From the NCBI RefSeq assembly GCF_055900595.2, contig NZ_CM148325.1: a DNA stretch of 64,000 bases, one strand, 5' to 3'. This document shows positions 15,112 through 21,767 of this stretch, piece by piece (positions within the stretch are counted from its first letter, which is position 1; each line of letters opens with the position of its first letter). A program made the translations under genes and the position numbers. The notes beneath the pieces were generated by a model. The model was not told where the DNA came from and made no database searches. It saw nothing but the letters and a program-made list of their open reading frames with translations.

Positions 15112-15636
15112 TTATGGGATGATACCACAGGCAATTCTTGCACCACCGCCACCTAGAGGTTCAGGATGGTCATCATGATTATCACCTCCTGCGTGGAGCA
15201 TTAGCGAACGGCCATCGAGCTCCTTTAATTCAGATAGTCTTGGCGCAAGCACCGGGTAGGTTGCTTTTCCGTCATGAGTGACATAAAGCGCAGGGAGATC
15301 ACCTAGGTGGCCATCAGGAGACCATGGACCGAGATGCTTCCCTGTTTTTTCCGGGTCAAAGTGACCACCTGCAGATAAAGCAGCGACAGTTTTTCCATCT
15401 TTCAGGGCAGGAGCACAACTTGCGTTTTCATGTACATGAAAACCATGAATGCCGGCGGGTAAGGAGTGAAGATCAGGGGTGAACAGCAGCCCGTAGGGTG
15501 TCTTCTGGATGGTTATTTTACCAATATTTCGCTCTTTTCCGTCACTATCAACAAGATTCATTGTTACATCTTTGGTGGCTGCATATCCACAGGATGATGT
15601 AGCCAGAATCACAAAGGCAATAAGTTTACGTTTCAT
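15112..15636 (-). CDS. sodC: Periplasmic Cu/Zn superoxide dismutase
   Basis: 174 aa with signal peptide, copper/zinc ligand motifs [34 protein letters not shown]. Confidence 0.9.
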
Positions 15637-15731
15637 AAACCCTCTGTTAACAGGTTAAAGATTTACTCAATAACTGTTGCGAAATAACAGTCAGCCAGAT
15701 TTCAGGGGGATGGCTGTGCGCGAAATGAAGC

Positions 15732-16811
15732 TTACTGCATCATGACCTCACGAACGAAATCTTTTTTGAGCTGTGTACTGTACGCTTTGCCATAAAACTC
15801 CACCGTGGGCTCCGGGATCTCATTCAGATCCGGACGGAGCTGTTTGTTCATCGGCGTGGAGCCGAAGACTTTACTCAGTGCATGTTGCGTTTCAGGCTGA
15901 ATCAGCCAGTTGAGGAATAAGCGTGATGCCGCCGGATGTGGGCTGTTGGCGGCAATGGCAGCGATGTTACCGCCGCCAGGCATGCCAAACTCCGGTACGT
16001 AAAATTTCAGCCGCGAATTGATAGCCCCGGTTTTTTGTAGTCCGACAAGATGGTCTTCCCAGGATGGTGTCAGCATCAGCTCGCCGTCATTCAGGCGTGT
16101 CAGACTATCAGCACCGGAGGCCGTGCGGGTAATTTTGTCCTTATTAGCAGCAAACCACTGCCAGCCTTTCTGCCAGTTTTTCACCACTGCCGGGTCAACG
16201 CTCTCCGCTTCGCTGTTAAACGTGTCGCCCTGAGTAGTGACGATGCGCTGGATAAAGGCTTCCCCCGCGCCGCCGTTGTTCGGGTCGTTATAGCCGAACT
16301 TTTTCGGGTTGGCGTCGATAAAGCTCTGCAACTGCTCCAGCGTTTGTGGCAGCGCCCGGTCACCCATCTGCTGCGGGTCGTAAGCAAATCCGGTCTGGTT
16401 GCCCCAGAACGCCACGGCATAACCCTGGGTGTCAACGTTCTGAATCTGGTGAATGGCGTCGCCATAGCCCGGCAAATCGTCCACCTTCGCCAGCGCTTTC
16501 GCTCCCATTGCCACTGGCAGTTGCGCAACAGACAAGGCGATAACATCTATTTTACCCCTTTTTTTCCCCGCTTCTGCCAGCAACTTGTTCACGTTTCCGT
16601 CGATATTCCCTTCCGGGATGCGCACCTTAACGCCGTACTGCTGCTCAAAATCCTTCACAAAGCTGCGCCACTGCGGCTGTAAGTACCAGACGTTAAAGGT
16701 CACGCTGCCCTCTTTTTTCGCTTGGGCAATCAGGTCGGGGCTATCCGCCGCCGTTGCCAGCGAGCTGCACAGCAGGCCGCCCGCCAGAATCATCACTGTT
16801 TTTTTCATCAC
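15732..16811 (-). CDS. ABC transporter periplasmic substrate-binding protein
   Basis: 359 aa, N-terminal signal peptide MMKKTVMILAGGLLCSSLATAA; last gene of 4-gene ABC operon. Confidence 0.8.
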   Translation of the reverse strand: MMKKTVMILAGGLLCSSLATAADSPDLIAQAKKEGSVTFNVWYLQPQWRSFVKDFEQQYGVKVRIPEGNIDGNVNKLLAEAGKKRGKIDVIALSVAQLPVAMGAKALAKVDDLPGYGDAIHQIQNVDTQGYAVAFWGNQTGFAYDPQQMGDRALPQTLEQLQSFIDANPKKFGYNDPNNGGAGEAFIQRIVTTQGDTFNSEAESVDPAVVKNWQKGWQWFAANKDKITRTASGADSLTRLNDGELMLTPSWEDHLVGLQKTGAINSRLKFYVPEFGMPGGGNIAAIAANSPHPAASRLFLNWLIQPETQHALSKVFGSTPMNKQLRPDLNEIPEPTVEFYGKAYSTQLKKDFVREVMMQ

Positions 16812-16829
16812 ATTATCTCCTGTAAAAGG

Positions 16830-19608: not shown

Positions 19609-19808
19609 CGGTTAAAAAGATGATTATTAAATTTACATACTAAACATTAAATTTATGTGACACAGATCCTTAAAGCTAAAAAATGATCTAAATATCAAAT
19701 TAAAAGCATATAAAACAATGGGTTAACCATAAAATAACAAAAACATCTTTCACATTTAAATTTAAGTAGTAAAGTTAATTACCATCTTACATTCGAGAGG
19801 AAAAGAAG

Positions 19809-20639
19809 ATGGCGTTTAACTTTCACCGGGCGGCAGAGGGGATCGTGCTGGCCAACAGCCACCGAGGTTATTCCAGCTGCGCGCCGGAGAACACATTCCC
19901 GGCCTTTGAAGCCGCCCGCCTGGCGGGAACCCACTGTATTGAAATCGATATCCACCTGACGGCGGATAACCAACTGGTGGTCACGCACGATCACCGTATC
20001 GACCGGGTATCCACCGGACACGGATTTGTGGAGCAGATGACGTACCCGCAGCTGCTGGCGTGCGACTTTGGCGTGAAATACCATCCGTCGTTTGCCGGAA
20101 CGCGCATCCCCTTGCTGGCGGACGTGCTGCGCTGGGCGGTGGAAAACAGCATGGGGCTGATTGTTGAGGTCAAACAGCGCAACCGCCATGACGAGTTTGT
20201 GGCGGCGCTGGTCGCACTGCTGCATGAGCATCTGGATGCCCTCGGCCATATCCAGTTGCTGGGCTTCAACCATGTGCTGATCAACCGGGTGAAGGCGCAA
20301 ATCCCGCAACTGGCGTTACAGGTGGTGACGCTGGAGCGCTACAATAACCAGCTTGCGGCTGTACAGCAGTCCAATGCCGGATGCGTCTGCTTTGAGTTCG
20401 AGTTCGCCCATATCGACGACCTGCGGGCCTACAAAAATGCCGGACTGGGCGTGCGGATGTATCTGCATGAAATGAAAAACGGCATGACGCCGCTGGAGCA
20501 GTACGACTATAAATTCGGCTGTGACAGTCGTCCGGTGATTATCGGCTGGATGCAGGCGGGGCTGATTGATATGCTCAGCCACGATGATATTCCGTATTTG
20601 CAGGGACTGATTGAAGAAGCAGGCCTGCGCTGGAACTAG
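19809..20639 (+). CDS. Glycerophosphodiester phosphodiesterase family protein
   Basis: 276 aa; GDPD motifs HRGYSSCAPENTFPAFEAA ... IEIDIHLTADNQLVVTHD. Confidence 0.85.
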   Translation: MAFNFHRAAEGIVLANSHRGYSSCAPENTFPAFEAARLAGTHCIEIDIHLTADNQLVVTHDHRIDRVSTGHGFVEQMTYPQLLACDFGVKYHPSFAGTRIPLLADVLRWAVENSMGLIVEVKQRNRHDEFVAALVALLHEHLDALGHIQLLGFNHVLINRVKAQIPQLALQVVTLERYNNQLAAVQQSNAGCVCFEFEFAHIDDLRAYKNAGLGVRMYLHEMKNGMTPLEQYDYKFGCDSRPVIIGWMQAGLIDMLSHDDIPYLQGLIEEAGLRWN

Positions 20640-20654
20640 AAAAATAAGGACACC

Positions 20655-21767
20655 ATGAACGCCCACTCTGAACGCCTTGAACTACGTGGTTCGCAGCGCC
20701 TGCTGCTGGAACTGATCCGTCTCCACGCCCCGGTGACGCGGGCTGAACTGGCACGGCTGTCGGGACTGACGGCGGGGGCGATCACCCAACAGTGCCGAGA
20801 GCTGATGTTCTCCGGCCTGGTGGTGGAAGGGGAGCGCAATACCGGGCAGCGCGGCCAGCCGTCGCTGCCGTTGCGCCTTAACCCCGGCGGCGGTTGTGCT
20901 ATCGGGTTGTCGTTCAGTCCCGGTTTTATCGATATGACGGTGGTCGATCTCAGTGGTCGCCAGCTGCTGTCGCTTTGCGAAGCACATCAGGAGAATCAGC
21001 CACTGGAGGCCTCTCTCGCGCAGATCAAAACCTTGGTGGAGAAAATGCTGAAAAAGCGCCAGCTCCAGCACGCACGTATTCTCGGCATTGGCTATGCAGT
21101 GCCCGGATTTCTGAAAGCGGATGGTCGCAAGCGCCACAGCGTACCGTGGCTGGAGAGCTGGCGTGAGGTAGATCTCCAGCAGGCGTTTGCCGACAACCTG
21201 CCGTGGCCGACGTGGGTGGAAAATAATGCCAACGCCTCGGCGGTAGGTGAACTGTACAGCGGCAAATGGAATGCGTACAGCGATCTAACCTTTATCGACC
21301 TTGGCTACGGTATCGGCGCGGGTATTATCTCCGGGAATAAAATGCTACGCGGCGGGTTCTGCAATGCCGGTGAAGTCGGGATGGCGTTTCCATCCGGTAC
21401 ACCGCGCCCGTCGTATAAGGATTTGCTTGCCACACTGGAGCGTGAAGGATTCAGTGAAACTAAGCTACCGGAGCTGATAGCCGGGCAGCACCCACTGCTG
21501 GAAAGCTGGTTTGAACGCTGTCGTGGCCAGGTGGAGCAGACGCTCTTCAGCTGTGTGCAGTGGGTAGACCCGCAAATCATCGTACTCGGTGGCGCGATGC
21601 CGAAACCGATTATCAGTCGTCTGGTGCAGGAACTGAATCAACTGATGGAAGCCTGCCTCGATCCCAACCGCCCCAGAGTGAAGTTAGCTGCCTCTTCGAT
21701 GGGAGCACAGAGTGCGTCATGCGGCGCGGCGATGCTCCCGTTGTATAAGGTGATTAATAATGGATAA
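20655..21767 (+). CDS. ROK-family transcriptional regulator (NagC/Mlc-like)
   Basis: 370 aa; N-terminal winged-helix segment then sugar-kinase-like ROK fold. Confidence 0.8.
   Translation: MNAHSERLELRGSQRLLLELIRLHAPVTRAELARLSGLTAGAITQQCRELMFSGLVVEGERNTGQRGQPSLPLRLNPGGGCAIGLSFSPGFIDMTVVDLSGRQLLSLCEAHQENQPLEASLAQIKTLVEKMLKKRQLQHARILGIGYAVPGFLKADGRKRHSVPWLESWREVDLQQAFADNLPWPTWVENNANASAVGELYSGKWNAYSDLTFIDLGYGIGAGIISGNKMLRGGFCNAGEVGMAFPSGTPRPSYKDLLATLEREGFSETKLPELIAGQHPLLESWFERCRGQVEQTLFSCVQWVDPQIIVLGGAMPKPIISRLVQELNQLMEACLDPNRPRVKLAASSMGAQSASCGAAMLPLYKVINNG

Follow-up and report, generated by a model that had tools for sequence, protein, structure and literature searches.

The DNA analyzed here (64,000 nucleotides of contig NZ_CM148325.1, NCBI RefSeq assembly GCF_055900595.2; the whole stretch is hereafter called the window) is a segment of an Escherichia coli chromosome, and its positions 15112–21767 hold sodC, an accessory gene for a periplasmic Cu/Zn superoxide dismutase, next to the genes of a binding-protein-dependent ABC importer, a glycerophosphodiester-phosphodiesterase (GDPD)-family enzyme and a ROK-family transcriptional regulator. 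The gene sodC (15112–15636, minus strand; 174 amino acids, WP_000823671.1; Pfam Sod_Cu, 6e-32) lies 95 nucleotides downstream of the stop codon of the gene for the periplasmic substrate-binding protein of the importer (15732–16808, minus strand; cluster-D, PotD/PhnS/Fe type; Pfam SBP_bac_8, 5e-31) and is read in the same direction as this and the other ABC genes, namely those of a PotC-like permease (16830–17666), a PotB-like permease (17663–18529; Pfam BPD_transp_1 for both) and the ATP-binding subunit (18526–19593; 355 amino acids from the RefSeq start; Pfam ABC_tran, 4e-36), all on the minus strand. Divergent from this operon is the pair formed by the GDPD gene (19809–20639, plus strand; 276 amino acids, a cytoplasmic enzyme without signal peptide; Pfam GDPD, 7.5e-27) and the gene of the ROK regulator (20655–21767, plus strand; 370 amino acids, an N-terminal winged helix-turn-helix (HTH) domain joined to a sugar-kinase-like fold; Pfam ROK, 4e-24). 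All seven genes had been named in an earlier note on this DNA, and all of them proved to be present and intact, each with a strong Pfam match; the gene directions given there were also borne out by the positions of the open reading frames, and the single boundary to be revised is that of the binding-protein gene, whose end at 16811 corresponds to an upstream GTG, the start being taken here at 16808. The same genes are annotated by RefSeq in the strain CFSAN061770, to which positions 15000–21800 are 100% identical, and in that strain they lie inside a genomic island full of insertion sequence (IS) fragments.

Judged by its profile, its metal ligands and its export signal, the protein encoded by the window sodC is a bacterial periplasmic Cu/Zn superoxide dismutase. 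It scored 111.3 with Pfam PF00080 (cutoff 28.9) and 218.4 with the NCBIfam SodC equivalog model NF007628 (cutoff 165). In an alignment of 14 SodC sequences, which included the solved SodCI and the SodC of E. coli K-12, the Cu/Zn ligands H67, H69, H92, H101, H110, D113 and H148, the bridging histidine among them, occupy invariant columns, as do the disulfide pair C74–C170 and the active-site arginine R167. By inspection and alignment, the N-terminus (MKRK, a hydrophobic core and SSCGYA|A) corresponds to the signal peptide of the prophage-encoded SodC-F enzymes, with which it shares a cysteine-containing shape (xxSC GYAA) that fits processing by either signal peptidase I or signal peptidase II. 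For the SodC-F signal peptide, export, dual processing by both peptidases and partial association with the membrane were demonstrated experimentally (D'Orazio et al., 2008; PMC2569942). The window SodC would accordingly be exported, with either cleavage by signal peptidase I at GYA|A or attachment of a lipid to Cys16 (TSSC).

The earlier note regarded this SodC as different from the housekeeping enzyme of E. coli and possibly as an additional copy of foreign origin, and both points were confirmed by the comparison with relatives. The identity between the window SodC and the K-12 enzyme (b1646) is 57% at the protein level. The housekeeping gene, situated in K-12 in the order ydhK-sodC-ydhF, is present at an identity of at least 95% in 5425 of 5426 complete E. 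coli genomes, and it went undetected when the same genomes were searched by sensitive blastn with the window sodC as a query. This search recovered the window allele (at least 99% identity) in just 125 genomes and a sodC gene of 76% nucleotide identity in 571 genomes, mostly those of O157, O145 and O111 strains; in O157 the latter gene has the phage tail gene gpJ on one side and a tail-assembly gene on the other, and it represents SodC-F of D'Orazio et al. (2008; PMC2569942). Compared as proteins, the window SodC and the O157 prophage SodC share 80% identity across their full length and 84% within the mature domain; the corresponding values for a plasmid-borne E. coli SodC (P0003) are 82% and 84%. 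The identity is 79% to the SodC of Stx2a phages and 60% to that of Fels-1, while the best match among solved structures was Salmonella SodCI of the Gifsy-2 prophage (about 66% over the mature domain, E 1e-64). In the neighbor-joining tree, which provided the phylogeny against chromosomal and prophage SodC proteins proposed in the note, the window SodC grouped with the prophage and plasmid forms of E. coli and apart from the K-12 enzyme. No phage genes were found to flank the window sodC in the window or in CFSAN061770, and the prophage tail-region setting of the SodC-F clade is thus absent from this locus, its flanks being IS remnants and the ABC operon. Taken together, these data identify the window SodC as an extra, horizontally acquired copy belonging to the mobile SodC-F clade of prophages and plasmids.

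SodC-F1 and SodC-F2 of the lambdoid prophages of E. coli O157:H7 share with the window protein all metal ligands and the neighbor-joining clade, and their genes resemble the window sodC in the 5′ leader and the 3′ hairpin; they differ from it by approximately 16–20% of the amino acids and by residing in prophages, whereas the window sodC is fused behind an ABC operon in an IS-rich island. Both SodC-F enzymes are dimeric, more stable, and expressed in the logarithmic phase and under anaerobic conditions, protease resistance and the dimeric state having been demonstrated for SodC-F1 only, whereas the housekeeping SodC of E. coli is monomeric and stationary-phase specific (PMC2569942). The latter enzyme (PDB 1ESO) belongs to the same family and the same NCBIfam equivalog model as the window SodC, but is encoded at another locus and is near-universal, in contrast to the rare window allele. 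Salmonella SodCI (PDB 1EQW, 6D52) is likewise a horizontally acquired extra periplasmic superoxide dismutase, although its branch is more distant from the window SodC than are the mobile E. coli forms; a role in virulence and tethering to peptidoglycan are features of SodCI.

The ABC, GDPD and ROK genes (approximately 15710–21760) constitute a discrete mobile cassette of six genes and about 6 kb with high GC content, which is independent of sodC. The GC content of the six genes is 55–59%, whereas sodC has 48% and the flanking genes have 39%. Positions 15710–21758 are 92.25% identical over 6053 bp to a locus of Salmonella enterica with an identical gene order, where the cassette is a cargo of an integrative element resembling integrative and conjugative elements and equipped with a TraI_2 relaxase, an integrase, ArdC and DndB; in this element it is the relaxase gene, not sodC, that comes after the binding-protein gene. 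The same six genes, with a nucleotide identity of about 66%, are found on a conjugative plasmid of Kosakonia cowanii, where they are followed by a DUF1868 gene and again not by sodC. Furthermore, one human isolate of E. coli (H80, NZ_CP148334.1, 285867–291657) possesses a second, divergent whole cassette (77% nucleotide identity), which shows that the cassette was acquired in E. coli independently.

Orthologs of the binding protein were found in Salmonella (91% identity), Klebsiella, Yersinia, Providencia, Pantoea, Vibrio, Pasteurellaceae and Rhizobium. With one genome taken per species, 75 loci with relatives of the binding protein were obtained, of which 74 could be scored for neighbors by tblastn with the window proteins within 9.5 kb. 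The PotC-like permease was encoded nearby in 71 of the 74 loci, the PotB-like permease in 70 and the ATPase in 69; the ROK regulator followed with 49 loci, the GDPD with 34, a 2H/DUF1868 phosphodiesterase with 21 and a phosphohexomutase with 6, while SodC was found in none. A SodC match and a binding-protein match of 71% identity came from contigs of equal length (24,855 bp), but the two differ in gene content, so that the agreement in length is a coincidence. The GDPD and the 2H phosphodiesterase occur together in Pantoea and in several species of Vibrio and Photobacterium, and the locus of Providencia encodes an additional second, large GDPD protein. The alphaproteobacterial loci are built as ROK gene / ATPase–permease–permease–binding protein–2H phosphodiesterase, and those of Rhizobium and Roseibium revealed no extra conserved catabolic genes beyond the ROK, transporter and 2H phosphodiesterase genes. 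In the orthologous locus of Yersinia pestis NCTC5923, the ATPase gene is apparently broken after about 100 codons by inserted DNA (L026, 5294–6218), which suggests that the transporter is a pseudogene in this species.

Comparison with both kinds of relatives showed where the cassette and sodC meet. On the ROK side, the homology to the Salmonella cassette stops at the ROK stop codon; on the other side it runs approximately 25–40 nucleotides past the stop codon of the binding-protein gene, to about 15692–15710. From about 15695 on, the sequence resembles the leaders of prophage and plasmid sodC genes. Since the Salmonella similarity ends and the similarity to sodC leaders begins there, the junction was placed at approximately 15690–15710, about 25–45 nucleotides after the stop codon of the binding-protein gene and within the 95-nucleotide spacer (15637–15731, minus strand) that separates this codon from the start of sodC. 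The sodC module thus extends over about 15070–15700 and includes a stem-loop situated directly after the sodC stop codon (15082–15104, minus strand; GGTAAGGGA...TCCCTTACC; flagged on both strands by the terminator scan), whose stem arms GGTAAGG/CCTTACC are conserved, with a variable loop, behind the sodC genes of the O157 prophage and the plasmid. A hypothetical gene convergent with sodC (14759–14983, plus strand; 74 amino acids, RefSeq annotation) moves with this module: it also adjoins sodC in the strain SM107, which is without the cassette. Its product had no match among Pfam or NCBIfam models.

Partial copies of the arrangement are informative with regard to its history. In SM107, where sodC adjoins a truncated IS66, the identity to the window spans the whole spacer and the last 45–55 nucleotides of the binding-protein gene, and poultry plasmids of E. 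coli and Escherichia albertii carry the equivalent of window positions 15000–15811, i.e., sodC plus 80 nucleotides of the binding-protein gene. The examined sodC-only copies, on chromosomes as well as plasmids, keep 53–80 nucleotides from the 3′ end of the binding-protein gene and are therefore deletion derivatives of the joined arrangement. Other genomes retain different remnants of the cassette: the binding-protein gene alone, this gene together with the permease genes, or only the ROK/GDPD/ATPase end. The complete sodC-cassette arrangement is present in only 22 of the 5426 genomes, and approximately 100 of the 125 genomes with the window sodC allele are without a complete cassette. The linkage of sodC and cassette was seen only in Escherichia-type islands, and, to judge from the shared sequence ends, a single event in an ancestor of the Escherichia island attached the sodC module to the 3′ end of the cassette. 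As a separate observation, the window contains a NERD-UvrD helicase gene (45069–46856, plus strand), and a gene of the same architecture directly adjoins the 82%-identical sodC (P0003) in E. coli, where both are borne by plasmids of roughly 100 kb (L013, 6854–8602); this neighbor may hint at a shared ancestral context of mobile sodC genes.

As to the cassette proteins, all of them bear generic database names, and no paper on such a system was found in the literature. Family assignment of the binding protein, proposed in the earlier note as a check, led to Pfam SBP_bac_8 and the PotD/PhnS/Fe branch. None of the NCBIfam models reached its cutoff with this protein, the best ones being PRK11622, PhnS and YdcS (for PhnS, 27 against a cutoff of 395), and comparison of its sequence with the PDB gave marginal matches alone (4EDP, HitA; E about 1e-5). 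The AlphaFold model of the protein (predicted local distance difference test score 89), used in a Foldseek search against the PDB, retrieved generic cluster-D matches with identities not exceeding 18% and with mixed ligands, namely iron, polyamine, thiamine, glucose-6-phosphate and oligosaccharides, from which no ligand could be assigned. The permeases were most similar to PotC (82 bits, cutoff 326) and PotB (80 bits, cutoff 348), and the ATPase also remained below the NCBIfam cutoffs for PhnT2 (361 and 458), UgpC (333.7 and 432) and PotA (330 and 482). The GDPD, on the other hand, is a firm member of its family (PF03009, 95.4 at a cutoff of 23.6), and its catalytic motifs SHRG, PENT, IEIDIH (E-x-D) and THD are intact and align with those of the solved GDPD proteins 2PZ0 and 2OTD. 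Its assignment as UgpQ was rejected (equivalog score 107, cutoff 264), and so was that of the cassette as a Ugp system, as the UgpC and UgpQ models stayed below their cutoffs and the binding protein is not of the UgpB type.

In the ROK protein, Pfam recognized an HTH_24/MarR_2 domain at residues 12–62 and a ROK domain at residues 93–242, the latter covering only the first half of the profile (positions 12–156 of 294). Among solved structures, the ROK protein 7RHE comes closest, with a match over the full length, followed by Mlc, while the scores with the Mlc and NagC equivalog models are far below the cutoffs. The Zn-binding motif CxCGxxGCxE, sought after the GxxGxAGExGH box, is not present in the protein, which reads ...GGFCNAGEVGMAFPSGTPRPSYKDL... 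at this position and has no Cys cluster there; 7RHE is likewise without this motif in the alignment, which points to a distinct subfamily of ROK proteins. Within the 215-bp divergent intergenic region, two operator-like blocks, defined as conserved footprints, are retained across 11 species of Enterobacterales, while the remainder of the region drifts. Block A, on the GDPD side (19754–19779), reads ATTTAAATTTAAGTAGTAAAGTTAAT and contains overlapping matches to the element TAAATTTAA on both strands; block B, on the ATPase side (19625–19662), comprises two TAAATTTAA elements 20 bp apart and the sequence GTGACA. This element has five matches in the window, four of which are within the divergent intergenic region (0.7 expected; at most three in shuffles). 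The conserved blocks are plausible candidate operators for the ROK protein, which, bound at the TAAATTTAA elements, would repress both transcription units until a substrate or product is present.

The recurrence of a phosphodiesterase and a sugar-type regulator among the neighbors makes import of a phosphodiester, its cleavage in the cytoplasm and ROK-mediated repression the simplest reading of the cassette. Periplasmic capture of a small phosphodiester would fall to the binding protein and its import to the permease pair with the ATPase, after which the GDPD-family enzyme would cleave it, probably to glycerol-3-phosphate and a sugar or polyol alcohol. The glycerophosphodiester-like nutrient, for which the divergent GDPD gene had been taken as a sign in the earlier note, appears reasonable in this light and is strengthened by the linkage of transporter and phosphodiesterase across many taxa, with the qualification that the cassette is not Ugp. 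Its likeness to UgpBAEC-UgpQ of E. coli consists in the combination of a binding-protein-dependent ABC importer with a cytoplasmic GDPD-family phosphodiesterase, the ATPase resembling UgpC and the GDPD resembling UgpQ; however, the cassette binding protein belongs to the PotD/PhnS/Fe and not the UgpB branch, a ROK protein is encoded at the divergent promoter whereas Ugp is under Pho control, and in the orthologous cassettes a 2H/DUF1868 phosphodiesterase often replaces or accompanies the GDPD. A further parallel is offered by the sugar-phosphate importers AfuABC and VcA0625, with "iron-type" binding proteins for hexose phosphates, which are among the fold matches of the cassette binding protein; like the latter, they combine a metal/polyamine-type annotation with a phosphorylated organic ligand (a probable one in the case of the cassette), but they are just 14–18% identical to it and are not accompanied by a phosphodiesterase. 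We conclude that the cassette probably imports and cleaves a phosphodiester nutrient, whose class is not assignable further.

Regarding sodC itself, its interpretation as the housekeeping gene of a diverged lineage, an ortholog and not an extra copy, could appeal to the common NCBIfam equivalog model, but with the true ortholog residing at ydhK-sodC-ydhF in practically every genome, 57% protein identity, no blastn detection of the housekeeping gene and IS fragments all around, the probability of this interpretation is virtually nil. The relation of sodC to the ABC operon calls for more discussion. The terminator scan predicted no terminator-like site in the 95-nucleotide spacer, and a consensus scan gave no credible sigma-70 promoter of sodC, the sole nearby match overlapping the start codon and being uninformative; because of this, read-through from the ABC operon is possible, and sodC may be transcribed in this way and yet stand outside the function of the cassette. 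One could go further and consider sodC a functional member of the operon, co-transcribed and ROK-regulated, by which superoxide defense would be switched on in response to a host-derived phosphodiester, and the common orientation, the short distance, the lack of a separating terminator and of a clear promoter of its own, as well as a linkage that goes back to the common ancestor of every copy of the window allele in E. coli and E. albertii, are in line with this proposal. Nevertheless, SodC is missing from the cassette in Salmonella, in Kosakonia and in all 74 species loci, the GC content and relatives of sodC are unlike those of the cassette, and the prophage homologs have promoter activity of their own and are expressed independently (PMC2569942). 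Moreover, sodC is retained in about 100 genomes after the loss of the cassette and its promoter region, which argues that it is independent of that promoter. We therefore regard membership of sodC in the ABC operon as unlikely, and the functional link between the two, implied by the earlier note, found no support: they are separate modules of different GC content and ancestry that are linked only in Escherichia-type islands. The adjacency is likely a historical accident of mosaic-island assembly, which brought together two unrelated acquired cargoes.

For the cassette, the competing explanation is an importer of polyamine, aminoethylphosphonate, thiamine or iron with the GDPD gene as an unrelated neighbor. 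It is prompted by the best, though sub-threshold, matches of the permeases, ATPase and binding protein, which are to Pot, Phn, Thi and Fe families, by the label "putative spermidine/putrescine transport" given to homologs in one source, and by the iron, polyamine and thiamine binders among the fold matches. Yet all the NCBIfam matches are far under the curated cutoffs, the solved binding proteins are at most 18% identical, the iron-type binders include the sugar-phosphate binders AfuA and VcA0625, both of them fold matches, and a phosphodiesterase, be it GDPD or 2H/DUF1868, recurs together with ROK across Gamma- and Alphaproteobacteria; we thus consider this explanation very improbable. Several observations weigh against the phosphodiester cassette and the two-module explanation themselves. 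As the binding protein is without a characterized close relative by sequence or fold, the phosphodiester substrate is deduced entirely from the gene neighborhood, and roughly one in four of the species loci, chiefly those of Haemophilus and Aggregatibacter, has the transporter with neither a phosphodiesterase nor a ROK gene next to it. Many E. coli genomes have an eroded cassette but have kept sodC, and given this erosion the cassette possibly brings the E. coli host little benefit. Finally, with neither a sodC promoter nor a separating terminator found, co-regulation of sodC with the ABC genes has to be reckoned with, although its chance seems small. We only tentatively propose the fuller picture, in which the cassette is an uncharacterized import pathway, widespread in Enterobacterales, Vibrionaceae, Pasteurellaceae and Rhizobiales, for a non-Ugp phosphodiester (examples being glycerophospho-sugars, glycerophospho-polyols and cyclic phosphates), cleaved by GDPD, by 2H/DUF1868 or by both in sequence depending on the lineage, and in which a mobile SodC was captured at the 3′ end of the cassette in E. 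coli islands and is perhaps induced together with it in the host.

The surroundings of the two modules are mosaic. Upstream of the sodC module there are a cluster of genes for carbamate kinase, a hypothetical protein, DUF1116, FdrA and DUF2877 (4084–11200, minus strand) as well as an ankyrin-repeat gene and a gene for a LysR regulator (11588–12517), and IS3 remnants (about 13200–13830) separate the carbamate kinase cluster from the sodC module. On the other side, between the ROK gene and an autotransporter gene, lie a YebF-family pseudogene (21862–22215, plus strand) with an internal stop according to the RefSeq annotation of the identical strain, and an AbgT-family transporter gene of low GC content (39%; 23266–24825, plus strand). 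The autotransporter is an intact S6-family serine-protease autotransporter (SPATE) of 1291 amino acids, encoded 3.4 kb from the cassette (25137–29012, plus strand); it has only generic database names and belongs to a 90% cluster of 526 members, one of which is from Klebsiella pneumoniae, and no match to a named SPATE was found. The published TagB/TagC SPATE island was considered as a counterpart of the island in the window, but it is located between yjdI and yjdK and is differently described, so that identity was not established and the candidate was dropped; a literature search on sodC in islands of avian pathogenic E. coli found nothing relevant. Farther along, a pair of the two-partner secretion/contact-dependent inhibition type is formed by a ShlB/FhaC-type transporter (35986–37725, plus strand) and a 1341-amino-acid filamentous-hemagglutinin fragment with a PT-VENN pre-toxin domain (38124–42149, plus strand), the exact sequence of which is absent from a collection of 15 billion proteins. 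The regions 47270–50491 and 56877–62774 encode a VasL/ImpA-type protein of type VI secretion systems, an OLD-family ATPase/TOPRIM nuclease and a complete type I restriction-modification system (hsdR, hsdM, hsdS), which are a typical defense and competition cargo of the same mosaic island.

The SodC of the window is of a known phage and plasmid type and the cassette is of a conventional nutrient-uptake kind, and neither of them overturns the current understanding. With this locus, the chromosomal island joins prophages and plasmids as a third vehicle of phage-type periplasmic superoxide dismutases in E. coli, and the cassette draws attention to an uncharacterized, widespread transporter family with ROK and GDPD or 2H phosphodiesterase partners. 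Among the genomes listed, the window SodC occurs mostly in poultry-associated strains, most carriers coming from chickens, chicken meat or a raptor, and it is also found on E. albertii plasmids. Like the SodC-F enzymes, it would dismutate superoxide produced outside the cytoplasm, for example by phagocytes, and would supplement the housekeeping stationary-phase SodC; in this way it could matter for how its carriers withstand the oxidative burst during avian and extraintestinal infections.

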